A stretch of DNA of 64,000 nt from Methanotrichaceae archaeon (lineage in GTDB: Archaea > Halobacteriota > Methanosarcinia > Methanotrichales > Methanotrichaceae), in contig CAVVKN010000022.1 of assembly GCA_963748825.1 (NCBI GenBank), positions 146,056 through 210,055 of the forward strand, given 5' to 3'. The notes below the pieces were generated by a model that saw only the letters and a list, made by a program, of their open reading frames with translations, had not been told where the DNA came from and did no database searches. The translations under genes and the position numbers were made by a program. Shown here piece after piece: positions 10,672-64,000 of the stretch (the first letter of the stretch is position 1; each line of letters starts with the position of its first letter).

Positions 10672-10735
10672 ATCGCAACACTCCGTTCATAGAAATTGGA
10701 ACTCAAAGTATAAAAATAAGGCCGCAGATGATGCT

Positions 10736-11107
10736 GTGGTGAGAAGTATTCCGCGAGGAAAAACAGGAGAAGACAGCAGCTTGCCTGAAATGCAGGGCGC
10801 CTGGATTATCTTGCAGCCGATTGTTGCAGATATGCAATTGGTGCAGTCAGGTCATCTCGTTAGTGGGACTTATTGCAACGCAGAAGTAAAAGGCACTATC
10901 GAAGGAACTCTTTTTAAGGAGGGAGAGGAAATTATGCTTATAGGAAAATGGGCCGACCAGGTAGGCAGAGGTGGTTTTAGAGTATCCATCGACAATACCA
11001 GTCACAATCATGAAAAAGCCGGGGTTTGCAAAACCATTTTCCAGGGAAATTGGAAGCATTCTAAAAGCCAAAGCTGGGACGGATTGTTTATGGGTGAAAA
11101 GAGATGA
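10736..11107 (+). CDS. Hypothetical protein (Gly/Trp beta-rich; start uncertain)
   Basis: Open frame with a periodic G-x-W pattern. Confidence 0.5.
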   Translation: MVRSIPRGKTGEDSSLPEMQGAWIILQPIVADMQLVQSGHLVSGTYCNAEVKGTIEGTLFKEGEEIMLIGKWADQVGRGGFRVSIDNTSHNHEKAGVCKTIFQGNWKHSKSQSWDGLFMGEKR

Positions 11108-11670
11108 ACCGTCAGGTGCAAGAGAGAGTGAAATAGGGGATCTCTGGGCCCAAATTTTTGATCATGATTGAATTCTGAAGGCATATATTGGCTCAGACAA
11201 GCCTCTTTTCGAACTTTTACGGTCGTAGCTTTGAAAAGACAGCGGGGACTGAGACTCTCAACTTGCCATTGAACTTGCTACGCGAAGGCAGATTGATGAC
11301 TGATTAGCCTGCAGTGTGTTTGGCAGGATATTCATGACTTTCAGACGGCAAATATTTAGGATATGAATTACATACATGTACATAATTTTTAATACATGAC
11401 CGATTCCTTTTGCCAATTCTTATGCCAATTCCCTGCGTGCTTAAAGGCTAACAACAAGCTAAATCGGGACTTGACCAATCATTACTTAAATGTCATTACT
11501 TATTGTCAGTATTTATCTATAGAATGCTAACTACCAAAAGCTTTTTCGTTAAGTCTTCAAATATAATGATATGATCTAACAATGGGAGGGATAAGATCGA
11601 GGCAATTGATCATGCGGAAGGCGGCAAGAGCCCATCTTTTCGCACTGCAGTCATCCTGGCCGTCACAATT

Positions 11671-14607: not shown

Positions 14608-14627
14608 TGGATATCATGAGGCTTAAG

Positions 14628-20400: not shown

Positions 20401-20811
20401 TCTTGCGCTAAGAAAGCAAAAACGGACGCCAGCCGGAAGAACGCCAGACCGCTGCGCATTTTGCTGGCGGAGGACAATGCCGTCAACCAGAAGGTCGCCA
20501 TTCAGATGCTAAAGCGGCTCGGCTACAGCGCGGATGTGGCCGGCAATGGTCTCGAGGTCTTGCAGGCAATAGAACGCCAGCCCTACGATGTCGTTCTCAT
20601 GGATGTGCAGATGCCGGAGATGGACGGCCTGGTGGCCACGCAAGAGATCCGCAAGCTGTGGCCCAAGGGGCCCAGGATCATAGCCATTACCGCCTACGCC
20701 CTGAAAGGCGACCGGGAACGTTGCCTGGCTGCCGGCATGGACGATTACATCAGCAAGCCCATTGTAATCGAGGATCTGAGAAGGGTTTTAGAGATGGCGA
20801 CTAGAGATTAA
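17419..20811 (+). CDS. Cytoplasmic multi-PAS hybrid histidine kinase
   Basis: Five PAS/PAC units ending in DIT(E/D)RK-like motifs, H-box SHEIRTP, G boxes, REC domain. Confidence 0.94.
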
Positions 20812-39429: not shown

Positions 39430-40967
39430 CCTTAACTCCGCGATTTAGGGCTTAAATTTGATATTATTTTAAATTTTTAACCGCTTGTAAATTATTTCAA
39501 TGGAAATCTATAAATATATGTATTCCCTAATATACCATACATGGACGAATGGGCAAAATTATGGCTGATTGAACAAAGAAAAATGGGAAAGAAAGGACTA
39601 GAAATTAAATATATAAGTAACCATCATTATGTCTATCATTCAACGACACACTGGGATAAGCAACTCAAAAAACGAATAAAAGATTCCGATTATATCGGCA
39701 AGCTGGATCGCACTAAAGGGCTTATTGAGGGAGTTAAGCGATCGGTAACCGCGAAAAATCTTCGAGGCATAAAAGAGTATGGTAACGCAATGCTATTTGA
39801 CCGTATTCTTACCGATATGAGGTCATGCCTTGAGGATGCTTTCAAAGATGAGTGGGAAGAAATCTATGCTCTAGCGATAACGCGAGCATCTGGCTATATG
39901 CCATTGAAACGAGTTCATTCTGCCTGGGATAAAATATATAATGTTCAAAAGATAAATCCAAATTTGGATGCAAAGAACTTAAGCCATGTGTTGAAAGCTG
40001 TTGGAATAGACAGTCAAGCACAGGATTCCGTTTTTAGAGCCCTATCTGAAAAGGACAAAGATCTCGTGTATGATTTGAGCACTGTGTTGACCAAGTCATC
40101 AATAAATTTTGCAGAGTTTGGCTATAACAAGAACAAGATCCACATTCCTCAAATAAATATCGCGCTGTTTTGCTCTCTGGAGACAGGCTTGCCCACTTTG
40201 ATTAGAACGATACCAGGAAGCGTTCGCGACATAAAGAGTCTCTATAACAGCATCGTTGAAGCCAATAAAGAAGGATCGACGATCATATTGGATAGAGGTT
40301 TCTTTTCGAAGGATGCCATTAAATTCCTGCTAGAAAAGAAAATGAGCTTCATTTTGCCTGCCAGAAGAAACAGTCTACTTTATGGGACAGATATAGGTCT
40401 GAATAATCACCTATTTTATCAGGATAGATTGATAAAATGCGGAAAAGGAAAAATTGAGGACATTTTTCTTTATTTATACGAAGACCAACAATTAATGCTT
40501 GAAGAAAACATCACGCTCTATCAAAAACTAGACGAGGGAAAAATCGACGCCAATAAACTTAGTGAGGCGCAGAAGCGTGCTGGAAAGATCCTGATAGTGT
40601 CTAATCTCGATTTAGACGCGAATACTATATTTATGCAATATAAAAGTAGAGACCGAATCGAGAAGCTTTTCGATACCTACAAAAATGCTCTTCAAGCAGA
40701 CATTCTCTATTTGCAGGATAATGAAAGTGTCTTCGGGCATATTTTTATCTCGTTTTTATCATTATATGCATACACAAAGATTGAGGTGGCTCTGAAAAAA
40801 GCTGACCTTTTAAGAAAGCAATCTCCAAAAGACATCCTGCTTGATCTGAGCAAGGTGTACTTAGTAGAATTAAATGACTGCAATATAATTTCAGAGATAC
40901 CTAGAAAATTAGAGACGCTTGACGCAAAATTAGGATTTAATTTATTCCCTAAAAACCGGAGTTAAGG
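39430..40967 (+). mobile_element. IS1634-family insertion sequence, intact
   Basis: TIRs CCTTAACTCCGCGATTTAGGG (39430-39450) and CCCTAAAAACCGGAGTTAAGG (40947-40967), 18/21 match; 6-bp TSD TTGGAT at 39424-39429 and 40968-40973. Confidence 0.92.
39541..40965 (+). CDS. DDE transposase (IS1634-type)
   Basis: YDLS, FGYNK, PGSVRD, LDRGFFS, YKSRDRIEKLF motifs. Confidence 0.93.
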   Translation: MDEWAKLWLIEQRKMGKKGLEIKYISNHHYVYHSTTHWDKQLKKRIKDSDYIGKLDRTKGLIEGVKRSVTAKNLRGIKEYGNAMLFDRILTDMRSCLEDAFKDEWEEIYALAITRASGYMPLKRVHSAWDKIYNVQKINPNLDAKNLSHVLKAVGIDSQAQDSVFRALSEKDKDLVYDLSTVLTKSSINFAEFGYNKNKIHIPQINIALFCSLETGLPTLIRTIPGSVRDIKSLYNSIVEANKEGSTIILDRGFFSKDAIKFLLEKKMSFILPARRNSLLYGTDIGLNNHLFYQDRLIKCGKGKIEDIFLYLYEDQQLMLEENITLYQKLDEGKIDANKLSEAQKRAGKILIVSNLDLDANTIFMQYKSRDRIEKLFDTYKNALQADILYLQDNESVFGHIFISFLSLYAYTKIEVALKKADLLRKQSPKDILLDLSKVYLVELNDCNIISEIPRKLETLDAKLGFNLFPKNRS

Positions 40968-44376: not shown

Positions 44377-45363
44377 GCTGTGTCGATTAAATTTAAATAG
44401 CTAAAATATACATATAATGCCATGAAACATGTTGATACCAGAGACTGGCCAGAATATAATGCCAAACTTGTTCGAAGAGGCGAATTCTATCTCGATTTGA
44501 GTTGCGTGAAGAACTGGAGTTGGGAATTAAGAGAAATGAACAGAAAGAAAACAGGCGCTCCAAACAAATACCCGAATACTTTTATAACTTTTGCATCAAT
44601 AATATACTCTTTCTTTCGAATGCCATATCGTCAACTTGAAGGATTCATTGGACGACTTTCAACCTATGAACCAGGATTAGTGGCGGCAGATTATACCACA
44701 CTCCATAAGCGAATCTCTAAGCAATCTCTTGAGATCCAGATACCTGAGAATGATGCTGTTGTTGCAGTTGATTCAACTGGGATAAGGTAACAAATAGGGA
44801 GGATTGGATGCGCGAGAAACACGGAAAGCAGCGGCGAGGATGGCTTAAAGTTCATGTGGCAGTCGACGTTGAATCAAAGAGATTATTGTCAATGGAAGTT
44901 ACAGAAGAAGATACATCGGATTGCGAGGTTTTGCGCCCTTTGTTGAAAGACGTCAATATTAAGAGGGGTTAATGGATGGCGCATATGACACAAACGACGC
45001 ATTTAGATTTATGAAATCGAAAGGTGTGGATTGTCCAGGGATTAAGATCAGAGGGAACGCGATAGTAGGCAAAGATGCATCAGCCAGGTCAACAGCTGTT
45101 CCGGAATTTAAAAAAATGGGCCACAAGGGCTGGAAGCAAACGCATCAGTACGAAAGAAGGTGGGCAGTTGAAGGCTTCTTCTCATCGATCAAGCGTATCT
45201 TTGGAGAGACGGTTCGGGCATCTTCATCCGAAGGAATGGTCGCCGAGATTAAAAGAGCATTCATTTTGTATAATATACTTATGAACATATAGATAATTAT
45301 CTTAAACTGAATTATAAATTTTAAAGTTGAAAATATTAATAATATACAATTAAGCGACACAGC
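44377..45363 (+). mobile_element. IS5-family (IS903-like) element with frameshifted transposase
   Basis: TIRs GCTGTGTCGATTAA (44377-44390) and TTAAGCGACACAGC (45350-45363), 13/14 match; no TSD seen. Confidence 0.85.
44422..45292 (+). pseudogene. IS5-family transposase with two frameshifts (about 44787 and 44965)
   Basis: WPEYNAKLVRRG, DSTG, WLKVHVAVD, DGAYD, RWAVEGFFSSIKRIFG distributed across frames. Confidence 0.85.
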
Positions 45364-50554: not shown

Positions 50555-52534
50555 ATGCACCACGAATGCCGGATGCCGGCTGATGATATGAATGGCATAA
50601 CCGGGAAGATATCGGCGCTCGCGGGACTGCTCGCGGGAATAGTAGCCGTCGCCGTAGGATGCATATTTCTCATCTTCGCTTTGCCATCGTTGGGACGGCC
50701 TGGGGAGTTTGATTATTTCTTCTCCCAGGCAGCGGGCGGCTTTCTCATCATTCTGCTGGGGCTGCAAGGAATTTTTGCCGCGGCTTTGGCTTGGCCAAGT
50801 CGCAAAGCAGAGCGGGCGCTTCTCCTCCTGAACAGCCTGTTTTCCCTTTGTATCTTTGCAACGCTGGCCTTTTATCGGGAGTGGACAGCCTGCGCCATTA
50901 TCATCATAATTGTAGCCATAACCTGGGCTGCTTTGCACCGCCGCAAGGATGCGGCTCCGATTCTTTTTCTCTTTGCCGGACTATTCGGCTTTCCCCTCAC
51001 CCAGGCGGCCATAACCCTGCTTCCTTACGGCTGGAAGACCTGGTCCATCTCGGGGGTTTTATTCCTCTTTTGCGCCATGTTCCTATCCTTTTCGGGGCAT
51101 TTCAGCCGGTTGCCTCTGCTTTCCAGTGGAGGGAGCCGGAGGTGGGGCCATCTTCTCTATGCCCTGCTCTGCCTGGCATTGATCGTCCTCGCCATATCAG
51201 CGCTCGTTTACCTTCCCGGACCGGCCGGTCCCGGAACTACAGGTACGTTGGCTAAATCTGTGCAAAGCGAAAACGGCACAGCAAATCAGACAGAGCTGAA
51301 AGACTGCGGGTGCAACGGCAGATCTTCGCAAAATTTGCAAGAATCGTTTCCTCAGAATAGTAGCGACCAGTATGACAATTCTGACAAGATCAGGGCGAAA
51401 ATTCTCTCACCCGGAGATGTGCGCACCTTCCCACGTGGCGAGACCGTGCTCTTTTCGGCGGCAGCTTGCGGCAACGGGCCACTACGCTACGTATGGCAAT
51501 CGAGCAGGGATGGCATCATAGGCAAGAGCGCGTCCTTCCGAAAGGATAATTTAAGCAATGGATGGCATAATATCTCCCTTACTATTACTAACAGCAGCGG
51601 CATTTCCTCCTCTGCCTTCATAGAAATCGGCATAGCCGAGCCCTGGGTTTGTGGTCAGGTTGATCCCAGGCCGAAGTATTATCCACTGGACACCCCCTGC
51701 CAGGACATCTGGCCAGATGCGCCGGAGCGGTGCCAAGAGATAGAGGTCTGCCATCCCAGCCTGGACTGGATAGTGGCAGAGTCCATCGATTGTTGCGACG
51801 GGACTCCTCTTCCCAACACCGCCTGCTCCGATGCCTGCAACCGATCAGGAGGCGACCGGAAAAAGTGCCGCGGCATTTTTATCATCAACTCCTTTGGGCC
51901 AGATGCCCGGTATATGCAGGGCTATGCGCTCTTCAAAACTTGCTGCTCCGGCTATCCAGAGTGCACACGTATGTGTGGCTCCAGCCTGGCTGGAACTTGC
52001 ACTTTTATGGATGGCTATAATGAAAATGTATCCAAACTCTCCTGCCGGCCGGAGGAGAGTGGCGTCTCTGCCTGGCATTCGGACACGAACATGAGCGAAA
52101 ACAGCGCCGTGCTGGGCATATTTCCCACCCACGCCACGGTGAACATCCTGCAAACAGGCGTTTGCAGTGATTACTCGGCGGCCTTAACCACAATGCTCCG
52201 GAAAGCCGGCTATAACAAGAGCGAGGCCTTCAGCACTTCCAGCTCGGCCTTTGATCTTCCACTTGTGGGTGATCATCCTGGCCATGCCTTCAATCTGGTG
52301 CTTCTGCCCGGCGACACAAAGTACCACATCGTGGATACAACTGGAAATGGCGACGGGATAAATCTGGGTGGAGTGCCCGGATATTTCCAATTTACAGGCT
52401 GCTTCCTGGGAATGCCCTCACACACCCGGATAATGGACTGGTGGATGGGCTATTGCAAAATGATCTCGCCCCAGAGCTACAATGATGCCGGTGATGCGAG
52501 GACTCCGGAAAAAGAGAAAATTTTTGGATGCTAA
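50555..52534 (+). CDS. Multi-TM protein with PKD-like, Cys-rich and transglutaminase-like domains
   Basis: N-terminal TM helices; YVWQSSRDG..LSNGWHNISL; GVCSDYS..HAFN..IVDTT triad. Confidence 0.75.
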   Translation: MHHECRMPADDMNGITGKISALAGLLAGIVAVAVGCIFLIFALPSLGRPGEFDYFFSQAAGGFLIILLGLQGIFAAALAWPSRKAERALLLLNSLFSLCIFATLAFYREWTACAIIIIIVAITWAALHRRKDAAPILFLFAGLFGFPLTQAAITLLPYGWKTWSISGVLFLFCAMFLSFSGHFSRLPLLSSGGSRRWGHLLYALLCLALIVLAISALVYLPGPAGPGTTGTLAKSVQSENGTANQTELKDCGCNGRSSQNLQESFPQNSSDQYDNSDKIRAKILSPGDVRTFPRGETVLFSAAACGNGPLRYVWQSSRDGIIGKSASFRKDNLSNGWHNISLTITNSSGISSSAFIEIGIAEPWVCGQVDPRPKYYPLDTPCQDIWPDAPERCQEIEVCHPSLDWIVAESIDCCDGTPLPNTACSDACNRSGGDRKKCRGIFIINSFGPDARYMQGYALFKTCCSGYPECTRMCGSSLAGTCTFMDGYNENVSKLSCRPEESGVSAWHSDTNMSENSAVLGIFPTHATVNILQTGVCSDYSAALTTMLRKAGYNKSEAFSTSSSAFDLPLVGDHPGHAFNLVLLPGDTKYHIVDTTGNGDGINLGGVPGYFQFTGCFLGMPSHTRIMDWWMGYCKMISPQSYNDAGDARTPEKEKIFGC

Positions 52535-53379
52535 GCTTTCCACTTAATCGTATTGCCCTTCATCTTTAGCATCCCTTTCTTCTCCAGGGATCGAGCAATC
52601 TCTTCCGCAACCAGGCTGGCATCAATGCTAAATACATTCCAGTTTCCTAAATCGACAACGCACTTATCTGCAAATTCCTCAATGTCCATCTTTCCCTTTG
52701 CCGGTTGTTCTACCAGATATTGTATCACCTTAGCCAGTCCCATTATCGTCATAAATTCTTGCTGGTATTCATGTCGAAACTCATCATCAATATCATGATA
52801 AAATGGGGCTGAAGCTTCATCTATGGTGATCTCATAAACCTTTTCCATATCAACATCTATTCTCTCCCTTTGCATTGGATCATCGGGATCGAAATCATTG
52901 CGTTTAATCGGAATGCTGACGACGGGATCATCAAGCCTGCTGCCTATCGGCACTGCTAGAGGTATTTTGTTAAGATTTAGAACATCCTCTGCAAAACTCA
53001 ATGCTAAAATAAATTCAGCCATGGATCTGCCGACTTCTTCTGGGGTCTTTTCATCCATATCCTCAGACAAATCCTTTTGCAGGCTGAAACTGTCCCTTAT
53101 CTCTCTCCAGTTAGGGTCTAGCTCACTCAGGAAAAGATCTCTGAATTCATCTTGCGTAGATGCCTTTTCCACAGCTGCTTTGATGGCAGCCAGGAAGCGT
53201 TCATATTTTAGAGAGAACTCATCGCGTTCTTTCATCTCGCTTAGCTTGCCCTGCAAGGAAGTTGTGACATCCATCTTAGCCACGACCAGGCCCTTAACAT
53301 CCACTTTGAACCCGGCATCCTTCAGATAGGCTGCGATGGGCTTTGCCACATCCTCGCTATATTCTCCTACCTTGAACAT
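52531..53379 (-). CDS. Hypothetical acidic protein
   Basis: 282-aa ORF with protein-like composition. Confidence 0.75.
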   Translation of the reverse strand: MFKVGEYSEDVAKPIAAYLKDAGFKVDVKGLVVAKMDVTTSLQGKLSEMKERDEFSLKYERFLAAIKAAVEKASTQDEFRDLFLSELDPNWREIRDSFSLQKDLSEDMDEKTPEEVGRSMAEFILALSFAEDVLNLNKIPLAVPIGSRLDDPVVSIPIKRNDFDPDDPMQRERIDVDMEKVYEITIDEASAPFYHDIDDEFRHEYQQEFMTIMGLAKVIQYLVEQPAKGKMDIEEFADKCVVDLGNWNVFSIDASLVAEEIARSLEKKGMLKMKGNTIKWKA

Positions 53380-53482
53380 AATTATTAGATCTCGATCTTT
53401 GCATATGAGGCTTGCCGGTGACTTGTTCGTATTCTAAAATACCTTTCGTCCTTTCGTGATGTACATGCCCTCCCGGTTTTGC

Positions 53483-53947
53483 TCAGGCCGGGACAGGCGT
53501 TGCCTCGGATCGATGCATGCTCTTTTCCATAGTTGCATCCAGGGCGGTGCGCATCTCCAGCTTTTGCGCCTCCTCGAAGCTGCCGTTTTCCAGGAGGTCT
53601 TCCATCATGCCGCTGAGGATGTCGTCCATGACCTCCGTCTTGAAGTAAAGCCGCTGCCTTTGCGCATAGTAGTAACTCATCTGCAGTTGCAGAACGGGAT
53701 TTGCAGCAGCCTGCTCATTATTGGCCAGGAGAGTGAGTTCATCGTCTGCCTTTCTGGCTTTGTCCTTGACCTTATTGTACTGGCCAAACCAGTTGAGAAT
53801 CGCTGAGGAGTCCAGCTTGGAGAGCTTGGGCATCATGCGCCCGAACCTCTGAGAGAGCTTGATCAGATCCTCGTTGGCAGAGCGAATGTCATCCTGATGG
53901 CGGGCAAGATCGGAAGCATACTTTGCAAATTCTGGGTTCTTGGACAT
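53483..53947 (-). CDS. Hypothetical alpha-helical protein
   Basis: ATG 53947 (MSKNPEF...); helical composition. Confidence 0.7.
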   Translation of the reverse strand: MSKNPEFAKYASDLARHQDDIRSANEDLIKLSQRFGRMMPKLSKLDSSAILNWFGQYNKVKDKARKADDELTLLANNEQAAANPVLQLQMSYYYAQRQRLYFKTEVMDDILSGMMEDLLENGSFEEAQKLEMRTALDATMEKSMHRSEATPVPA

Positions 53948-54055
53948 AGAACAACAAAGTACAGGGCAAATGATAAGGACTAGCCGCGCGGGGCGAAAGT
54001 GATCGGGCAAGAGGGAGTGCATTAATATCGAAGAAGATTTGCAGGAGAATATGAT

Positions 54056-54718
54056 ATGAGTAGCAGTAGTGATAAGATCTCACAGGTACGCCGTCTCTGC
54101 CATCAGCTCTGCTTCTCCTCTTGCGTCGAAGACAAGCGGCAGGGCCGCCATGTTGAGCTTCTGCGCCTGCGGCCTCACTGGTCCGTTTTAAAAAAGGAGG
54201 AGCAGATTGTCAAGATCGACCAGGGTGAGAAGGTCCCCTTCGACATCTCCCTGCCTCTGCCCGCCCGAGACGAGCGGGAGGGCTCCGACGCGGGGGTGGG
54301 TCTCTTTTGGGAGCGTTTCCAATGCCAGCAATGCGGCAGGTGCTGCTACACACCTGGAGCAGGCCTATACCTCGATAAAGAGGATTTTGAAAGGATCGCA
54401 GGGCACGTGGGAAAGAAGAAGCTAAAAGCCCTCTGCCGGTACAAAAAGGCCCTGCAGGCCTGGGTGCTGAGGCAGCCCTGTCCGTTTTATGACAAAGATA
54501 GAAAAGGCTGCTCCATCTACGAGATCAGGCCCCTTACCTGCACCAAGTACCCACTTCATCCGCCACTGCAAGAGATGCCCTACAACCTGGCCGTCGATGC
54601 CTTCTGCCCGGCAGCGCGCGTTCTGGCCAAGGATACCTTAGGCTGGTGGATCATCTGCGAGAACAACTGGGCAGCAATACTTCAAAAATTGGCACGCGAT
54701 CAGAACAGAAAGCCCTGA
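54056..54718 (+). CDS. YkgJ-family CxxCxxCC cysteine-cluster protein
   Basis: CQQCGRCC, PCPF, CSIYEIRPLTCTKYP. Confidence 0.88.
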   Translation: MSSSSDKISQVRRLCHQLCFSSCVEDKRQGRHVELLRLRPHWSVLKKEEQIVKIDQGEKVPFDISLPLPARDEREGSDAGVGLFWERFQCQQCGRCCYTPGAGLYLDKEDFERIAGHVGKKKLKALCRYKKALQAWVLRQPCPFYDKDRKGCSIYEIRPLTCTKYPLHPPLQEMPYNLAVDAFCPAARVLAKDTLGWWIICENNWAAILQKLARDQNRKP

Positions 54719-54760
54719 TGATTTCAATGCATTTTTGTTTAATGCATTCTGTTCACTGCA

Positions 54761-55582
54761 TCAGTTTTTGTTTAGGCCAAGTTCCTCTTTAAGCCATTCT
54801 ATTCGATCGGACCGTCCTTCTTCGTTGAGACTATAATGGTCCGCATTATACCATCGAATGGATTTCGGGACGCTACCCGCGTCATAATAATCCAGGAATT
54901 TCTGCTTGGGAAAAAAGACATCCTGAAGGCCATACTGAAAGAAGAGGGCCGTAGGTGCGGCACTTCTTATGTAGCGCATGGGGTCGATCGGTTCCATGAT
55001 CTTTTTATATTTTTCCAGCTCGCCTCCGGCAAGGTTGGGCATGTTCAGTTGGGCTACATCGGTGAAGCTTCCTACGCCCGCCATTAGCACGCTGGCTTTC
55101 ATCCTCTTGTCCACACCAGAAAGTATCCCTGCAAAAAGAGCGCCCAAACTGTGACCGACGAATGCTACCCGGTTAAAATCCACGCTTGGCAGCGAAGAGA
55201 TCAGATCAACGGCACGGCGCAGATCGATGGCAATCTCGATGAACCAGTCACGCACATCTTCCGGCCGTCCGCTGGCTCGTTTGCCAAACTCAGGTCCGTT
55301 GGCCCATGGTGCATCAATAAGCAGGCAGGTCACGTTTGCCTTTGCCAGAGTGAAAGCCTCATCCAAGAAAGAAGATCTGCTTCCTGGGCCCGGGTGCAGG
55401 AAGATGACTGCCCCAAATGGGCCTTTTCCAGGAGGGGCAACCAGATAAGCTCTGATTCGTCCGCCTTTTACGCCAGCATAACTGATATCGTGCACAGAGA
55501 CGCCGTTTAGATATTCAATGCCAGCTTCTTCTTGGTTTAGCGGGGCCTTCTGGTTGTAGGAAAATATCTCATCCATCAGCAT
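54761..55582 (-). CDS. Alpha/beta hydrolase
   Basis: GHSLG nucleophile elbow; D and H of the triad near the C-terminus. Confidence 0.88.
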   Translation of the reverse strand: MLMDEIFSYNQKAPLNQEEAGIEYLNGVSVHDISYAGVKGGRIRAYLVAPPGKGPFGAVIFLHPGPGSRSSFLDEAFTLAKANVTCLLIDAPWANGPEFGKRASGRPEDVRDWFIEIAIDLRRAVDLISSLPSVDFNRVAFVGHSLGALFAGILSGVDKRMKASVLMAGVGSFTDVAQLNMPNLAGGELEKYKKIMEPIDPMRYIRSAAPTALFFQYGLQDVFFPKQKFLDYYDAGSVPKSIRWYNADHYSLNEEGRSDRIEWLKEELGLNKN

Positions 55583-55587
55583 TAAAA

Positions 55588-56271
55588 TTAAAACATCTCC
55601 TTTTCATTCATGTAATTTATGATTTCAGCAAATCCGTTCCCGTATTCGGCCTTGGCTATGTAGTCGGAGATCTGCTTCAACTCTGGGCTGGCGTTGCCCA
55701 CAGAGGCCCGAAAGCCGGCCAACTGGTACATGGGCAGGTCGCTGTTGCTGTCGCCGATGGCGGCAAACTCGGACAGCTCGATTTGCATGCGCTCGGCAAT
55801 GCGGCGCAGGCCCGTGCCCTTATCGACCCGCTTGTCTTTGATATGCACCGCAAAGGTGGTATCTATGATATGCACGGGCAGGCCCAGCTCCTGGGCCCGC
55901 CTGGCGGCGGCTTTTACATCGAAGTTTCGTTTCAGGGCAATATCGGTAAATCTGTAGCGAGAGGAGCTGTATCTCTGCAGGGGAAATTCTGCTGCCAGCT
56001 TTTGGAAGGCATCCTCACAGACTTTCAGGTCCGCCAGGACCTCAATCTCATCATCGGAGTAGGATAGCACGCCACCGTTCTCGGCTATGAAGATGCGAGG
56101 CGTGCCCAGGAGAACACAAACCGTTCTGGTGAAGCAGTGGGAGTTGCCCGTGCTCAGCACCACCGGAACCTCAAGACTGCGCAGCGTCTGCAGGGCAGCG
56201 GGACAGAGCACTCGATTTTGGTCGCTCAAGGTGCCGTCGATGTCCACAGCTAGAGCGCGGATCATGGCCAT
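55588..56271 (-). CDS. Phosphoglycolate phosphatase (HAD IIB, SPP-like)
   Basis: DIDGTL, AENGG, DKGTG, GDSNSD. Confidence 0.92.
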   Translation of the reverse strand: MAMIRALAVDIDGTLSDQNRVLCPAALQTLRSLEVPVVLSTGNSHCFTRTVCVLLGTPRIFIAENGGVLSYSDDEIEVLADLKVCEDAFQKLAAEFPLQRYSSSRYRFTDIALKRNFDVKAAARRAQELGLPVHIIDTTFAVHIKDKRVDKGTGLRRIAERMQIELSEFAAIGDSNSDLPMYQLAGFRASVGNASPELKQISDYIAKAEYGNGFAEIINYMNEKEMF

Positions 56272-56519
56272 TGCCCTGAGCCTCTTGGCGGTTGGGAAAT
56301 CGTTCCGCTCTCTGCTCTTTCTACTACTTTCTCATCGATCTTCTCTTTCCAACGGATGTAATTGAGTGTAAAGTCTGACGCCTCCAAAGTATGACCATAG
56401 CCATTTCGGCACTAAAAAAAGTTTTCGTTATTTTGAAAATTATGTAGTGGCTTTGGGATCGGCTGTCCGAAAAAAAGTTAAGCGATTAATATATACCAAT
56501 AGATCTGGAGTTGGCAAAT

Positions 56520-58109
56520 ATGAAGAATGGAACGGTTCGCTCAATATTTCTATTGTCATTCTTGCTCATCATTTTATCTAGTACAGGTGTTCTTGCCGCG
56601 CCTGTGGAAAATATCAAGGACCAGGCAACTGTCGCCCTAGACGATAGCGGAACGAACTACAGAGCCGTGACCTATCCGTGCTATTTCGAGGGAATTGTGC
56701 GAGATACGGCGACAGGGACGCCCATCAAAGGAGCCAGCGTGACCTTTGTCAAAGAAGATAAGAGCAAATCCTGGACGGCGACTACATCCGATAGTGGGCG
56801 ATACCGCCGGGATCTTCCCGAGGGCAGGTACACCTACATCGCCACCCATTCCAATTTTATCATGCAATCCAGCTCTTCCCCAGTCGAGGTGCGGGCCCCT
56901 TACACCAAGAGAGTGCGAGGCGCTGGGGGCATTGTTCGTGAGATCACCATCAGTAACGAGAAATCCAAAGTTGTAGATATTAATATGAAAGCCCGGCCAA
57001 CTACTGTTCTTCTCGTTACCACTTCTCTCTTGAGCACGACTGCAGAACTTGATGAAGCCGTTTCTAGCTATACTGAAGTTGTCAGCCGCAAGGATGGGCT
57101 TTCTGCCCGCTACATTGTGCTCGACTCGGAAGATTGCCGGGCCGCGTACGGGGTGCGGCTGAGCAATCCAGGCAGTTGGGAAGAGATTAGAAATGCGCTG
57201 CACACAATCACAGATGAAACCGGGCCGTGCTACATCATCCTCCTGGGAGGGCCATCGGTGCTGCCCATGCCTCAAGTGGTCAATATAGATGGCAGTCCCT
57301 GGTACCTGCCGGCTGATGGCTGGTACATCGATTTTGACGGTAATGGTATCGTGGATGAGGGATTTGCCGTCAGCCGCATGCCGGACATCGCTACCGACTC
57401 TTCTGCCATTGTCAGTGCTCTGGAAACCGCCAGCGATATTCACGTGGCAGGGGGCTTTGGCATGATACCCGAGATGCTTCTGTCCACGCGGTGCTGGTAT
57501 GCCCCGCCTGTGGGGCTGGGTGACGCCTGCCGGGATGATGCACCCACATGCGGGCGGTGCTTCGCTACTCCGCCTTACGGAGTGTGCGATGAATGCGAGC
57601 GGAGTGATGAGCTGTTCAATTTGATGTCAGATAGTGATTACATCTTTATCATGGGGCACGGCAGCCCGGTGTCCTTCTCCACCAATGAACATCTCCCCAT
57701 TTTCAACCTGGAAAATGTGGCAGATGTAGATTTGCAGAGCAATCATCCTCTCATCTCCGGCTGGGTCTCCTGCAACACCGGCCAGCTCTACAATGACCGC
57801 CCCTCCTTTGCCACGGAGTTTCTCAGAGCCGGGGCGGCAGCCTTCCTGGCCCGAACTACGGATCGGGGAACGCCCAGTTATTTCGCCGAGAAATTCGAGC
57901 CCTACCTGAAGGGTGATAGCCCCTCGGGCCGCTACCGATTGGGCGATGCCCTGAGCGAGCTGATGAGAGAGGTCGTTCTCAGGAAAGGAGACGGCGAGAG
58001 GAGAGATACCATGCAGCTATGCATGTATGGAGATCCCACACTCAAGCGAGTCAGGTATGAACTTCCCGCCATGGGCGCTGTGGCTGCAGTAAGCCTGACC
58101 CCCAGGTGA
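56520..58109 (+). CDS. Secreted C25 (gingipain-like) cysteine peptidase with carboxypeptidase-regulatory-like domain
   Basis: Signal peptide, YIILLGG, VSRMP, GHGS, SCNTG, YGDPTL. Confidence 0.78.
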   Translation: MKNGTVRSIFLLSFLLIILSSTGVLAAPVENIKDQATVALDDSGTNYRAVTYPCYFEGIVRDTATGTPIKGASVTFVKEDKSKSWTATTSDSGRYRRDLPEGRYTYIATHSNFIMQSSSSPVEVRAPYTKRVRGAGGIVREITISNEKSKVVDINMKARPTTVLLVTTSLLSTTAELDEAVSSYTEVVSRKDGLSARYIVLDSEDCRAAYGVRLSNPGSWEEIRNALHTITDETGPCYIILLGGPSVLPMPQVVNIDGSPWYLPADGWYIDFDGNGIVDEGFAVSRMPDIATDSSAIVSALETASDIHVAGGFGMIPEMLLSTRCWYAPPVGLGDACRDDAPTCGRCFATPPYGVCDECERSDELFNLMSDSDYIFIMGHGSPVSFSTNEHLPIFNLENVADVDLQSNHPLISGWVSCNTGQLYNDRPSFATEFLRAGAAAFLARTTDRGTPSYFAEKFEPYLKGDSPSGRYRLGDALSELMREVVLRKGDGERRDTMQLCMYGDPTLKRVRYELPAMGAVAAVSLTPR

Positions 58110-58115
58110 ACTCTA

Positions 58116-58412
58116 ATGTTAATGGGAAAGAAAGCCAAGCCCGAGTCGCCGGAGGAGATGGCTCTGGTGCATCACGCCCTGGAAAGTCCCATTCGGAGGA
58201 ATATGATCATCCTCATGAATCAGGGGGTTTTGAGCGTGCCGGAGATTGCGGCAGCGGTGGGCGAGAAGATGCTCGACTACCATCTGCACCGCCTGGAGCT
58301 GGCCGGGCTGATCGAGCTATCGGAGGGGAAAATTGTGCTCACCGAGGCGGGAGTGGCCTACGGCGGGCTGGTGGCAAAGCAGAAAGATATGGGTGGGGCG
58401 GACAAGATCTGA
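58116..58412 (+). CDS. Winged-helix (ArsR-like) protein
   Basis: ALESPIRRNMI...LDYHLHRLELAGLI. Confidence 0.85.
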   Translation: MLMGKKAKPESPEEMALVHHALESPIRRNMIILMNQGVLSVPEIAAAVGEKMLDYHLHRLELAGLIELSEGKIVLTEAGVAYGGLVAKQKDMGGADKI

Positions 58413-58674
58413 AATCTCCTTTTTCCGGACGGCATCTTTGGGGATGCGACGACGCTTTTGCTTTCCAGGGCGGGAGCAGATAGGGCGGAGACAGGTGTTG
58501 GTTTGAGGGAATATTAGTATTATTTTGCGGCTTTGCTAGCAAGTCTTAAATTCAGGGCAACCATCTTTACAATCAATGCATTAACAATCCCAAAGTTAAT
58601 ATTATAAAATTTTTAACATATGATGATAAATTGAATACATAGTGAATTGACCCTGAATATTGCACGAGGAACAA

Positions 58675-61600
58675 ATGACTGGATTGACCTGGCTTCATCT
58701 TTCGGATTGGCACCAAGCAGAACAGAAATTCAATCGCAAAGTGGTTTGCGATGCCCTTATTAAGGATATAAAAACGAGAGGAGAAATAAATCCTCATTTG
58801 AGTAAAATAGATTTCGTTGTCTTTAGCGGGGATGCAGCCAACACCGGACAGCCAGATGAGTACAAGAAGGCAACCGAGGATTTATTTAAGCCTCTTTTAG
58901 AAGCCTGCCAATTGGGACAAGACAGACTTTTTATTGTCCCGGGCAATCACGACTTAGATCGAGATTTAATTCCTGCTGCGCTTTTGAAGCTTTTGAACTC
59001 CAATGAAGAAGTTGAGGCATGTTGGAGCGACGAAAGAAATAGAAGGCTGTTATCGCAACCGTTCCAGGCTTTTAATCGCTTTCTGACTGATTGCACCGGC
59101 CAAAAACCACCGGAATATTGCAGCGTTGCCTCATTCGTGATCGACGGCAGAAAAATAGACTTGCTAGGTATCAATTCCGCATGGATGTGTGCACGCCATA
59201 AAGACGAGGATGGGAAAATTAGCGATCAAGGATATCTCTGCATTGGTGAACCGCAGATCTATGAGTCTCTTGAGAATATCTCGGACTCTGATATCAAAAT
59301 TGCCGTACTTCACCATCCACTCGACTGGTTGACTCCATTCGATTCAAGCCGAAATGAGGTTCATTTAAAACGAAAATGCAATTTCATACTGCATGGTCAT
59401 GCCCATAAGCCTGGAGCATCAGCAATTAGAGATAATTTTGGCTATTATATCACAATTCCAGCAGGTGCTTGCTATGACAGAAGCATGCCCTCAAATTCAG
59501 ACTACACCTATTCGTACAATTATGTCCATTTGGATTTTGATACAGACAAAGGCTTTGTCTTTCTGCGTCGGTGGAGCGATTTAAACAGGGTTTGGCGGAA
59601 AGACGACGAGACATTTCCTCCAAATGGACAATTTCACTTTTCAATTTCGGGATCGGACAAACCTCCCATTCCCAGCCAAATCCCACCGCCCCCGCGTGAC
59701 TTCAAAGGCCGCGAAGAAGAGATCACGGACATCCTCTCCAACTTCGAAAAAGGAGCTACCATCACCGGCCTGCGTGGCATGGGCGGCGTGGGCAAGACCG
59801 CCCTGGCCCTGGTCCTGGCAGATAAAATCAAGAGCCAATTTCCCGATGGCCAGATCTTCGTAGATATGCGGGGAACAAGCAATAATCCGGAATTGCCTCC
59901 CCTGACACCCGCTGAGGCCATGGCTCAGGTCATCCGGGCCTACAATCCTGCTGATCGCCTGCCGGAAAACTCAAATGAACTGCGTGGTTTGTATCTCTCA
60001 ATTCTGGCTGGCAAACGTGCTCTCTTGCTGCTGGACAATGCCGCCGGCGGCGAGCAAGTGGAGCCTCTGCTGCCGCCCGCAGGCTGCGCCGTTCTAATCA
60101 CATCGAGAATTAAATTTGCCTTGCCCGGTTTGGCGGAAAAAGATCTGGACATTTTGCCTAAAGATAAAGCGTGCGAGCTTCTTCTTGAAATTGCCCCACG
60201 TATTGGCGATCGGGCCGAAGAGCTGGCAAAACGATGTGGCTACCTTCCTATTGCGCTACGCAATGCAGCCAGCGCTCTAGCTGAAAAACGGGATTTAAGC
60301 GTTCCCGAGTATGAAAGACTTCTGAAGGATAAGGTAGCACTGCTTAAATTAGTAGAAGGGTCCTTCAGCCTCAGCTATGACTCTGCTCACTCCCGGAAGA
60401 AAAAAGCAATGGCGGCGTTTATCGGTCTTTCCAGAAGATTTCGATCGCAATGCTGCGACTGCAGTTCTAAAGATGGCTCCAGATCCATCGGCAGAGGCTC
60501 TAAGCGATTTGGTGCGATGGAGCCTGGTGGACTTTGCTGCAATACCGGATTCTGAGGATGGTCGATACAAACTTCATGATTTGGCTCGTCTTTTCGCAGA
60601 ATCGTGTCTCGAACAAGATGAACTTGCCGATGCCCAGCAGAAACATGCCAAGTATTACTCGAAGGTGCTTTCTCAAGCTGAAAATCTCTATGAAAAAGGT
60701 GGGACGAATGTCTTAGCAGGACTCAAGCTTTTCGATCGTGAATGGGCCAATATCAAAGTTGGACAAGCCTGGGTTAAGAACATAATTCCAGTACTCCAGC
60801 AAATTGAAAAAGAGTGATTTGAAATCAGTCCTGCAATTGGCCAGCTCTTACGCGAACGATGGCGTCAACGTTTTGTCTTTGCGCCTGCATCCAAGGGATA
60901 AAATTGGCTGGCTTGAAACGGGCTTAAAAGCAGCAAAGATGATGGGGGATCGAAGCGCTGAAAGCGCCCATTTGGGCAACCTGGGGCTGGCCTACGCCGA
61001 TCTGGGCGAGACGCGCAAGGCCATCGGGTACTATGAGCGGGCCCTGAAGATCATCCGCAAGATTGGTGACAGAAGGGGCGAAGGAGCCTGCCTGGGCAAC
61101 CTGGGCAACGCCTACGCCGACCTGGGCGAGACACGCAAGGCCATCGAATACTACGAGCAGGCCCTGGCCATCTCACGCGAGATCGGGGACCGAAGGGGCG
61201 AAGGAGCTCACCTGGGCAACCTGGGCGGCGCCTACGCTGACCTGGGCGAGACTCGCAAGGCCATCGAGTACTACGAGCAGGCCCTGGCCATATCACGCGA
61301 GATCGGAGACAGAAGGGGCGAAGGAAATCACCTGGGCAACCTGGGCAATAGCCTACTCCGATCTGGGCGAGACGCGCAAGGCCATCGAGTACCACGAGCA
61401 AGCCTTGGCCATCTCCCGCGAGATCGGCGACCGAAGGGGCGAAGGGAGTCGCGCTGGGCAACCTGGGCGGCGCCTACGCCGATCTGGGCGAGACTCGCAA
61501 GGCCATCGAGTACCATCGAGCAGGCCCTGGCCATATCTCGCGAGATCGGCGACAGAAGGGGCGAAGGAGATCACCTGGGCAACCTGGGCCTGGCCTACGC

Positions 61601-62218
61601 CGACTTGGGCGAGACACGCAAGGCCATCGATTACCACGAGCAGGCCCTGGCCATCTCTCGTGAGATCGGCGACAGAAGGGGCGAAGGAATCCAGCCTGGG
61701 CAACCTGGGCCTGGCCTACGCCGCACTGGGCGAGACGCGCAAGGCCATCGAGTACCACGAGCAGGCCCTGGCCATCGCTCGCGAGATCGAGGACAAACGG
61801 AACGAAGGAGAATTACTCTGCAATTTAGGCAAAGCCTACCTGGACCTGAATGAAACCGACAAAGCCATCGAATACTGCACGCAGTCGCTGGACATCGTTC
61901 GCAAGATCGAATATCGGAAAATTGAGGGCGAAGCGCTCTGCATTTTGGGCAAAGCCTATTCTGATCTTGGCCAGATCGACAAGGCGATCGATCATTGCGA
62001 TCAAGCGCTGAAGATCTTCAAAAAGATGGAATATCGCCGGGGAGAGGGCGAGGCCCTCTTCACCAAGAGCCAGGCTCTGGACAAGCTCGGCCAGCGAACG
62101 GAAGCAGCATCCCTCGCAAATGAAGCCCTCCAGATCTTCCTGCAGATCGAAAGCCCCCACGCCGAAAAGGTCCGCCAGCAAGCTGGCCGAGTGGGGCGCG
62201 AGCCCGGAGGAGAATTAG
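58675..62218 (+). CDS. Metallophosphoesterase-NB-ARC-TPR (NLR/Avs-like STAND) protein, frameshifted in this assembly
   Basis: LSDWH, GD, PGNHD, HHP, HGHAH; Walker A GMGGVGKT, LLLLDNA, ITSR, GYLPIAL, LHDL; TPR array. Frame breaks near 60380, 60795, 61350, 61450, 61513, 61692 and 62180; stop TAG 62216-62218. Confidence 0.85.
60972..61815 (+). repeat. Seven tandem 120-bp TPR-coding repeats
   Basis: Units start at 60972, 61092, 61212, 61332, 61454, 61575 and 61696 with (C/T)TGGGCAACCTGGG; degenerate units follow. Confidence 0.95.
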
Positions 62219-62219
62219 C

Positions 62220-62957
62220 ATGCAAGTCATCTTTCTCGGCACCAACGGCTGGTACGACAGCCCCACCGGCAACACCATCTGCACCCTCATCAACTCCGAC
62301 AAGTACCACATCATCCTGGACGCCGGAAACGGCCTTTACAAAGCGGACCGCTACATCAAGGACGACCTGCCCGTCTTTCTCTTCTTAAGCCACTTCCACC
62401 TGGACCACATCGAGGGGCTGCACGTCCTCAGCAAGTTCCGCTTCAAAAGCCTCACCATCTTCGGCCAGAAGGGCACCAAAGCGGCCCTCAATACTATTAT
62501 CAACGAGCCCTTCACCGTCCCCCTGGACAAGCTGCCCTACCCGGTGGAGGTGCGCGAGCTGTCTCCGGGGCCCTACAAGCTGCCCTTCGCCCTGGACTGC
62601 CGCTTCCTGGTGCACGCCTCGCCCTGCCTGGGCTATCGCTTCGATCTGGACGGCAAGATCATCACCTACTGCCCGGACACGGGAGTATGCGAGAACGCCG
62701 TGCTCCTGGCTGCGGATGCCGACCTGCTCATTGCGGAATGCGCCCACCTGCCCGGCGAAGAGAACCCGGCGTGGCCGCACCTCAATCCGGAAGATGCCGC
62801 AGACATCGCCCGGCAGGCGAAAGCCAAACGGCTGGCCCTCACCCACTTCGATGCAGGACGGTACACGAGCCTGCAAATGAGGCGTGAGGCTGTGGCGACG
62901 GTAGGGGACTTTCCAGGAATTGTGGTGGGAGAGGACGAGCTGGTGCTGCAGCTTTAG
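62220..62957 (+). CDS. MBL-fold hydrolase (RNase Z/BN-like)
   Basis: FLGTNGW, DAGNG, SHFHLDH, PDT, LTHF. Confidence 0.9.
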   Translation: MQVIFLGTNGWYDSPTGNTICTLINSDKYHIILDAGNGLYKADRYIKDDLPVFLFLSHFHLDHIEGLHVLSKFRFKSLTIFGQKGTKAALNTIINEPFTVPLDKLPYPVEVRELSPGPYKLPFALDCRFLVHASPCLGYRFDLDGKIITYCPDTGVCENAVLLAADADLLIAECAHLPGEENPAWPHLNPEDAADIARQAKAKRLALTHFDAGRYTSLQMRREAVATVGDFPGIVVGEDELVLQL

Positions 62958-63237
62958 GTTGGTAGGGAGTGAAGGGAACTGGGCAAAGATCACCTTTTTG
63001 CATCCTTTGCGCTTTGGTGTCTTTGTGATGGTGATAATATAAAATTCAGGTCCAACCATCACACTGTAATTATTTGTTTGTTAATAACGTATTCTACCAA
63101 TTTTAATTGTAAGCAAAGTTATAAATATCATTGAAAGATATTATCTAATAAGTACAGATTTATCTGGAAAATCCAAAAATATGAAGAGCACCAGCTAAAC
63201 GAGAATGGGAATTATAAGTTATTGGAAGTAGGCGTTA

Positions 63238-63744
63238 ATGTCAGAAAAAGCCTTTAGTTCTGCGAGCATCTTGATTGCGGAAGATGACGAATCAAACCGG
63301 AAAGTAACCTCTGCCATACTCAAACATTTGGGCTACCGAGCCGATGCCGTATCTAATGGCAGAGAGGCGCTACTGGCCTTGAAACGTCAGCATTATGATA
63401 TAATTTTGATGAACTTGAGGATGCCGGAGATGGACGGCTTACAGGCAACTCGACTGATTCGGGAGCTCTGTCCTCCCTCGGTCCAGCCAAAGATCATAGC
63501 ACTTACTGCTTTTATTCTTCCTAACAGCAGAGAAACATGTCTTGAAGCGGGAATGAATGACTTCATACCAAAGCCCGTGAAGATGAATGATCTGGCCAAA
63601 ATATTGAGCAAACATGTACGAATCCTTGAGAGGCAAACTGCATTTATGCGATCGCATGCAGAGGCGTTTAAGACCCTTGACTCTCTGCCGAAGAGAGGAA
63701 AACCTATTTTGCCTTTTAAGCAAAACCATTACTTAAAAAATTAG
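63238..63744 (+). CDS. Stand-alone receiver-domain protein with Asn at the phospho-acceptor site
   Basis: ILIAEDD, YDIILMNLRMPEMDG, IIALTA, FIPKP. Confidence 0.88.
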   Translation: MSEKAFSSASILIAEDDESNRKVTSAILKHLGYRADAVSNGREALLALKRQHYDIILMNLRMPEMDGLQATRLIRELCPPSVQPKIIALTAFILPNSRETCLEAGMNDFIPKPVKMNDLAKILSKHVRILERQTAFMRSHAEAFKTLDSLPKRGKPILPFKQNHYLKN

Positions 63745-63944
63745 ATATGTCTGCATCAAGAACCTCTTTTTGTTTGCCAATATTTGGGAATTGTAAATTC
63801 TAGCAGAACTTCTTTAATAAGCAGCCATTTCTTAGCCCTGTCCGAGAGAATTATATACATAATAATCATATCCTTTCTCAGCAATTATGGGAGCGAGAAT
63901 GAAAAGTGGGCCTGACCTCAGGAACGAATGGTGTGAGGGGCACC

Positions 63945-64000
63945 ATGGCTGAAAAGAATGCATCCGACGAGCCAAACGGTAAGCTGGAGAAAAACGAGGA
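63945..64000 (+). CDS. Start of a gene running out of the window
   Basis: GAGGGG RBS then ATG; frame open to the end. Confidence 0.45.
   Translation, partial: MAEKNASDEPNGKLEKNE

Follow-up and report, generated by a model that had tools for sequence, protein, structure and literature searches.

The question raised by this locus is whether a gene that appears in pieces in the assembly is one working gene in the organism and, if so, what its product does. The window analysed here is a stretch of 64,000 nucleotides of a Methanotrichaceae archaeon genome (assembly GCA_963748825.1, contig CAVVKN010000022.1, positions 146,056 to 210,055), and the gene lies on its plus strand at 58675-62218, where four overlapping open reading frames (ORFs) in three frames carry, in this order, a calcineurin-like metallophosphoesterase, an NB-ARC ATPase and an array of 40-residue tetratricopeptide repeat (TPR) units. 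The reading that we favour, with moderate confidence, is that this is a single gene, intact in the organism, for a signal transduction ATPase with numerous domains (STAND) that resembles nucleotide-binding, leucine-rich-repeat (NLR) proteins, that the breaks in its frame are errors of the consensus sequence, and that the protein may work in the manner proposed for the E. coli protein DS-8 and for Avs proteins. It is an archaeal member of an already known, phosphoesterase-armed kind of STAND protein, and probably an intact one, rather than a new kind.

Three-frame translation combined with alignment to orthologues gave the frame order 1>2>0>1>2>0>1>2, with steps at about 60382, 60793, 61350, 61453, 61517, 61695 and 62179, and every one of these steps corresponds to one surplus base relative to the orthologues or to the repeat consensus. 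Removal of the seven bases leaves 3537 nt, or 1178 codons, in which the sole stop codon is the terminal one at 62216-62218 and the product of which ends in KLAEWGASPEEN. The ORF at 58660-60555 matches both Pfam Metallophos (53.3 bits, cut-off 21.5) and Pfam NB-ARC (35.2 bits, cut-off 23.5), with the E-values listed in Table 1, and the frames downstream match Pfam TPR_12 (E 2.8e-36 and 1.3e-28). All five phosphoesterase motifs (SDWH, SGD, GNHD, LHHP and GHAH) are intact in the sequence, and so are those of the ATPase: GMGGVGKT, LLLLDNA, VLITSR, the GxP-like GYLPIAL, and KLHDL. By their usual names, GMGGVGKT is the Walker A motif, LLLLDNA the Walker B motif and KLHDL the MHD-like motif (LHD). 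An earlier note on this DNA, made from its sequence, had claimed that calcineurin-like motifs, NB-ARC motifs and a TPR array would become collinear after indel repair, and this was borne out by the Pfam matches, the motifs and the read-through of 1178 codons; the gene limits it gave, from the ATG at 58675 to 62218, proved exact, and the tripartite effector-STAND-repeat architecture is real.

The occurrence of the three modules together is far beyond chance, and the same domain order is found in intact orthologues of four related genomes, namely G015 (an ORF of 1023 aa, 1018 from the conserved Met), G020 (1100 aa), G001 (1227 aa) and G019 (an ORF of 1045 aa, 1023 from the conserved Met); handles beginning with G stand for genomes, C for contigs and L for loci. 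Pairwise ratios of nonsynonymous to synonymous divergence (dN/dS) against the orthologues are 0.18-0.25, which indicates purifying selection, and for this genome's own branch a value of about 0.27 follows by hand arithmetic from the pairwise distances, although such values say little on pseudogene status, as a very recent inactivation would give equal ones.

How, then, did seven frame breaks arise in a gene under selection? Very probably they are assembly errors. In a scan for frame changes, 534 genes of this genome were set against the ORFs in 1.2 Mb of a complete congeneric genome, and 25 of the 533 other genes carried frame changes, 31 in all, of which 21 are due to a surplus base and 10 to a missing one (insertions thus being about twice as frequent as deletions), with one place counted twice, on opposite strands, and a few located at divergent gene ends, where they may be alignment noise. 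The genes broken by indels include Ribosomal_L3, SecY, Rad51/RadA, ATP-synt_ab (A-type ATP synthase B), DNA_pol_B, a member of the IF-2B family (aIF-2B) and Chorismate_synt; examples of break places in this genome (G000) are C21:26063, C21:38107, C6:71956, C9:171312, C23:205001 and C4:125100-125500, and the chorismate synthase gene bears three extra-base shifts within 400 nt. No living cell could have all of these genes broken, which points to assembly errors.

A second line of evidence comes from the end of the contig to which the window belongs (C22), as it dovetails with the end of contig C19 (Table 1). The overlap spans 2886 columns, with 61 mismatches, 53 of them inside the TPR array, and 11 indel places. 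A dovetail of 2.9 kb implies that C22 and C19 are neighbours and that the contig ends represent low-quality consensus. The C19 copy is without three of the five insertions that it covers (at about 61450, 61516 and 61693) and differs at a fourth (61349); it carries the insertion at 62179 but is without a G at about 62200, and it breaks, at 62482, a downstream gene for a metallo-beta-lactamase (MBL) fold protein which is intact in the window. Contigs of relatives (about 90%) from four metagenome runs do not have the extra base at five of the seven sites; these come from other strains and therefore carry no information on this strain's own alleles. If the frame breaks are consensus errors, the gene is probably intact in the organism, with about 1178 codons. 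One practical consequence is that apparent pseudogenes in this assembly are not to be trusted at face value, because single-base indels hit essential genes and contig ends overlap.

The N-terminal head contains all five metal-binding motifs of the calcineurin-like superfamily (DxH, GD, GNH[DE], H and GHxH), and residues D11, H13, D53, N91, H92, H213, H242 and H244 are invariant across all 35 homologues in the alignment. The head as modelled by AF2 (mean pLDDT 89.1, pTM 0.90) had 332 matches in the PDB at E<=0.001 by Foldseek, and the top matches listed are all metallophosphoesterases, in agreement with the beta-sandwich phosphoesterase fold. The nearest structure is B. subtilis YydB (PDB 9a6c chain B; E 1.5e-23, TM 0.76 on the query, 19% identity), which differs in that it pairs with a separate protein, YydD, and has no STAND fusion (9a6c is an integrative model with YydD); a literature search on YydB/YydD found no functional paper. 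Other structural neighbours, among them the cyclic-nucleotide phosphodiesterase Rv0805, purple acid phosphatases, SMPDL3A/B and Mre11, show a generic likeness. The nuclease output that had been suggested for this protein is thus a conjecture, the neighbours beyond YydB being only generically alike and the fold that of a generic metallophosphoesterase.

At the level of sequence profiles the head is homologous to those of antiphage and candidate defence proteins: it matches NCBIfam NF053861 DS8_antiphage (E 2.3e-33, 115 bits, profile positions 1-281 of 994), NF053862 DS9_1 (E 9e-16), the PADLOC candidate PDC-S60 (E 1.6e-36, profile positions 4-254 of 1027) and the PADLOC 'Effector endonuclease' model PDLC00736 (E 1.5e-31, profile positions 4-294 of 561). 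Elsewhere the head recurs, at about 50% identity, joined to NACHT plus HEAT, NACHT plus FGE-sulfatase, TIR, OLD-like ABC ATPases (AAA_15/21), AAA_35, and nSTAND1 plus PAS, and it occurs in Methanotrichaceae, cyanobacteria, Chloroflexota, Myxococcota, Aminicenantes and others. Domain shuffling of such a kind is typical for effectors of conflict systems.

Two side observations concern the head. A paralogue of it, 49% identical, is present in the same genome (L002:1474-3987, equal to G000:C21:93799-96312) and is followed by at least 570 residues without a Pfam match, in an ORF that continues past the end of L002. In four cyanobacterial loci (L105, L109, L119 and L146) a head protein of 718-736 aa is followed by a protein of 1185-1312 aa matching PADLOC HEAT-ARM_XIII (E 1.4e-33 to 2.3e-50), which looks like a conserved two-gene form.

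The central module has the two sequences expected of a STAND P-loop, GMGGVGKT and LLLLDNA, both here and in four orthologues, and the MHD-like histidine of its winged helix is found in KLHDL at residues 632-636 of the read-through, kept in G015, G001 and G020. For the nucleotide-binding oligomerisation domain (NOD) and TPR region of the orthologue, the best sequence match in the PDB is AfsR (chain 8k60_I, E 4.1e-50, residues 338-655). The NCBIfam models AfsR and HaaT match this region as well; the AfsR model scores 255.6 bits at residues 310-662 against a cut-off of 1430 and, as the N-terminus is a phosphoesterase, the protein does not belong to AfsR or the Streptomyces antibiotic regulatory proteins (SARP). 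Within the TPR array, Tandem Repeats Finder reported a near-identical core of 6.8 copies of a 120/121-nt unit at 60973-61789, with 87% matches. Homologues in the databases have lengths of 1018, 1058, 1098-1099, 1138-1139, 1179 and 1259 aa, a ladder of 40-residue steps into which the read-through of 1178 aa fits, and the copy number of the TPR therefore varies by gain and loss of whole units.

Table 1. Coordinates (window numbering) of the gene, its modules, its frame breaks and the adjacent features
Feature	Position	Strand	Remarks
Whole gene (metallophosphoesterase, NB-ARC, TPR)	58675..62218	+	1178-codon read-through; orthologues 86-91% identical across residues 1-574
Calcineurin-like metallophosphoesterase core	58693..59412	+	Pfam PF00149 E 6.3e-14; modelled domain 58675-59679
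Metal-binding motifs	SDWH 58702-58713, GNHD 58942-58953, GHAH 59395-59406	+	read from sequence
NB-ARC / AP-ATPase NOD with winged helix	59716..60640	+	Pfam PF00931 E 1e-8; Walker A 59776-59799, Walker B 60022-60042, LHD within 60569-60583
TPR array, 40-residue (120-nt) units	60973..62140	+	nine units by motif in the read-through, 40-aa spacing; TPR_12 E 2.8e-36
Frame break 1, extra T in SYD/LLTPGRKK	60381..60383	+	base missing from relatives' contigs, 4/4 runs
Frame break 2, extra A	60792..60794	+	base missing from relatives' contigs, 4/4 runs
Frame break 3, extra base in TPR unit (GGCAAT-A-GCC)	61349..61351	+	C19 copy two bases shorter here
Frame break 4, 1 extra base	61449..61454	+	not in C19 copy, which stays in frame
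Frame break 5, 1 extra base (TACCAT-C-GAG)	61515..61518	+	not in C19 copy; missing in 1 run
Frame break 6, 1 extra base	61690..61696	+	not in C19 copy; missing in 2 runs
Frame break 7, 1 extra base (CAG-C-AAG), then KLAEWGASPEEN and the stop	62178..62180	+	also in C19 copy; missing in relatives, 4 runs
Duplicated stretch	61121..64000		C22 end dovetails with C19 end (26858-23980, reverse), 97.4% identity
ArsR-like helix-turn-helix (HTH) gene, 98 aa, left border of cassette	58116..58412	+	Pfam HTH_5 E 0.0026 (below cut-off)
MBL-fold hydrolase, 245 aa, RNase Z / cyclic-nucleotide phosphodiesterase-like	62220..62957	+	Pfam Lactamase_B_2 E 1.4e-20

What the protein does can be approached through the systems it resembles. 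DS-8 of E. coli is a metallophosphatase fused to NACHT, the catalytic or ATPase mutants of which lose phage defence and the substrate of which is not known, according to its description (DefensePredictor; Science 2026; PMC13092281). The likeness is that of one polypeptide in which an N-terminal metallophosphatase, homologous to the head found here, precedes a STAND-type P-loop NTPase; the differences are that the NTPase is NACHT in DS-8 and NB-ARC here, that the DS-8 model matches the head alone, its 115 bits falling short of the equivalog cut-off of 790, and that the present gene, known from its sequence, has a regular TPR array as its sensor and an archaeal host. DS-9A, a validated anti-phage system, likewise has a homologous head. 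The models PDC-S60 and PDLC00736 have the N-terminal phosphoesterase domain in common with this gene, whereas the rest of those proteins is unrelated to it, and a literature search on the name PDC-S60 found no paper. AfsR (PDB 8k60, 8jke) combines an NB-ARC NOD with a TPR region as well, but it is a transcription activator with an N-terminal DNA-binding domain in the position which is here occupied by an enzyme head.

With Avs1-Avs21 and bacterial NACHT proteins the gene has in common the logic of an effector, a STAND NTPase and a helical-repeat sensor (Lee et al., Nature 2026, PMC13581612), although its NOD is of the AP-ATPase/NB-ARC clade. A search of the text-form supplements to that paper, which deals with 198 defence-associated clades, gave no hit for this clade, and other tables of it may list the clade. 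Calcineurin-like phosphoesterases are named among the effector domains of NACHT proteins in a preprint (Kibby et al. 2022), and they are also listed as effector domains of TRADD-N proteins. It had been claimed that no archaeal example of this exact architecture has been characterised; indeed none was found in the literature searches, but the architecture itself has precedents in DS-8 and in the lists of NACHT effectors.

If the protein works as proposed for E. coli DS-8 and Avs proteins, a ligand would bind the TPR array (a protein from an archaeal virus or from another mobile element being the most plausible one), upon which the NOD would swap ADP for ATP and oligomerise. The clustered phosphoesterase heads would then turn active and might hydrolyse a phosphodiester substrate (nucleic acid, nucleotide or cyclic nucleotide), with the infected cell being arrested as a result. 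Judged by architecture and homology, the chances that the role is an antiviral one seem to us roughly balanced. The more specific proposal of a Methanothrix antiviral pattern-recognition receptor, an NB-ARC/TPR counterpart of DS-8 whose head would destroy a nucleotide or nucleic-acid substrate once a viral protein is sensed and whose TPR array would be retuned by single 40-residue units, as the length ladder from 1018 to 1259 aa suggests, is put forward tentatively, as a somewhat doubtful possibility.

A number of observations weigh against the reading of an intact gene with a DS-8/Avs-like mechanism, and they bear on both of its parts. As to the integrity of the gene, the alternative is a true pseudogene, with the seven insertions fixed in the strain and the receptor dead, an outcome that the earlier note had raised itself. 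Breaks are about 35 times as dense here (seven in 3.5 kb) as in the genome at large, and the maximum in any other scanned gene is three; all seven breaks are insertions; and the one at 62179 is common to both assembly copies. The mismatch of 5% between these copies in the TPR array could reflect two strains instead of error. No public sequencing run was found to contain one half or more of the words sampled from the sequence (the highest share being 0.15), and the argument for an artefact is thus indirect; among the public runs listed for these words there were none of RNA. Moreover, the gene is dispensable in the genus, being missing in G017 and full-length in only six of the 24 other genomes, and another STAND-type gene of this genome (CHAT plus nSTAND, C21:21546-23727) also has three frame changes. 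On the other hand, indels of the same type are present in essential genes of the same assembly, four of the five sites covered by C19 are not reproduced there, the 1178 codons contain zero nonsense codons at a dN/dS of about 0.2-0.27, and a set of insertions only is contrary to the decay of prokaryotic genes, which is usually deletion-biased. Assembly error fits better, given the indels in essential genes and the differing C19 copy, and a dead gene appears quite improbable to us. Even that is far more plausible than programmed ribosomal frameshifting or transcript slippage reading through seven +1 sites, an idea which has in its favour that all the shifts go in the same direction and which we regard as next to impossible: the seven sites have no common sequence context and no slippery run, a stop codon coincides with only one of them, the frames of the orthologues are plainly open, the second assembly copy does not reproduce the sites, and the same defects are seen in essential genes.

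As to the role of the product, the protein might be intact and yet serve signalling of a non-antiviral kind, like AfsR or MalT, with TPRs that sense a cellular or environmental ligand and switch a phosphodiesterase on; such a protein might break down a nucleotide second messenger, or bring about regulated cell death in the sheathed filaments. It is in line with this alternative that AfsR, which among solved structures comes closest to the NOD-TPR part, regulates transcription, that Rv0805 and SMPDL3A/B are among the structural neighbours of the head, and that the gene is found at a conserved place in the chromosome, flanked by an ArsR-like regulator and an MBL phosphodiesterase-like gene, with no obvious mobile island. 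A defence neighbourhood is also missing for this subfamily: PADLOC gave 0 matches at E<=1e-5 among 20 neighbouring ORFs of the window, so that no defence island is seen, and in the four sampled loci that share its NB-ARC NOD one of 52 ORFs matched, compared with 11 of 140 ORFs drawn at random from a related genome. Enrichment of homologues near defence genes, set beforehand as a test of the antiviral proposal, was thus not found for the NB-ARC NOD subfamily. Across 26 loci of the family defined by the same head, 38 of 278 ORFs matched against the same 11 of 140 (odds ratio 1.86, p 0.11), a weak enrichment measured at E<=1e-10 with an unmatched control, the random ORFs being from one related genome, and with matches that include generic AAA, RtcR-like, GlgB and TnpB-like proteins; 29 loci had been chosen from 79 for their full flanks, and L153, L160 and L156 were left out. 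Nor did any PADLOC Avs model match the window pieces or an intact orthologue, and the Avs-like identity given to the protein in the earlier note was not upheld in this respect.

Against a non-antiviral role stand the homology of the head to those of the validated DS-8 and DS-9A, the shuffling of this head among TIR, NACHT and OLD-like chassis, the presence/absence polymorphism of the gene together with its rapidly varying TPR copy number, and the location of other family members next to Shango, Menshen, Septu-like and Hma genes. The defence systems beside such members are Shango (L110), Menshen with a GajB-like helicase (L112), PtuB (L115), HmaABC (L130) and an LmuA-like MBL with a caspase (L147). 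Validated defence systems also exist outside islands, as the abstract of the DS-8 paper (PMC13092281) points out. On this balance, non-antiviral signalling strikes us as rather unlikely, less so than a dead gene. The proposal of an antiviral or non-self sensor therefore stands in part, through the homology of its head to the validated DS-8 head, and is weakened by the neighbourhood of its NOD subfamily.

Three of the family loci just named may be described further. At L110:737-12305 a member of 1435 aa adjoins SngA/B/C (Shango), at L115:7248-11380 a member of 1091 aa is followed by a PtuB-like HNH gene (E 4.5e-44), and at L130:440-16964 a member of 2522 aa lies between HmaA/HmaB and HmaC.

Methanothrix is a globally important acetate-using methanogen and matters for methane production, and to our knowledge its viruses and its immunity are barely known. 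Should the antiviral role hold, the recently validated bacterial design of a phosphoesterase-armed STAND protein would reach the archaea and the NB-ARC/TPR chassis, one that is also used by plant NLRs, and no archaeal STAND immune sensor with a phosphoesterase effector would have been characterised before this one. The 40-residue length ladder would then offer a natural series of sensor alleles for experiments.

The distribution of the gene and its setting were examined in related genomes. Of the 24 other genomes that represent the genus, six gave a full-length match, and the 16 genomes from other genera of the class gave none; the three closest matches are 86-91% identical, and the close homologues bear the database name 'tetratricopeptide repeat protein [Methanothrix sp.]'. 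The window is syntenic with G020 at 50631-62956. The ArsR-like gene upstream is conserved at 89-92% in G015, G001 and G020. The MBL protein downstream matches NCBIfam RNase_Z (8.4e-28) and cyc_nuc_deg_phdiest (7.6e-20), both below the cut-offs, and its gene starts 1 nt past the STAND stop here and 1-2 nt past it in five of five flanked loci with a STAND gene. The MBL gene occurs without a STAND gene in G005, G023 and G017, and in the last of these (L079:7836-8910) a few tens of bases at most separate the ArsR-like gene from the MBL gene behind it, which represents the empty form of the site. The STAND gene is therefore a presence/absence cassette of 3.8 kb. An Avs2-trypsin-MBL system has been reported, and by analogy the MBL protein was considered as an obligate partner of the STAND protein; this was rejected, as MBL occurs alone in the three genomes mentioned.

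Several minor observations were made at and around this site. Between the ArsR-like and STAND genes, G015 (L074:6206-7261, 351 aa) and G001 (L075:11898-13202, 434 aa) have a transposase-looking ORF, presumably IS110-like. The CHAT and nSTAND gene on C21 has a counterpart in G020 which encodes a CHAT protease with AAA_16/nSTAND1. In the window itself, upstream of the gene, there is a DDE transposase at 39541-40965 (DDE_Tnp_1, E 1.2e-16) and a DDE_Tnp_1_5 fragment at 44422-44790 (E 4.8e-22). Finally, about 3.9 kb of the window (10732-14627) is missing from the syntenic place in G020 and interrupts the match to a protein of 342 aa; this segment may be a mobile element, and a part of it, 13465-14555, resembles both window positions 19639-20759 and a distant place in G020.

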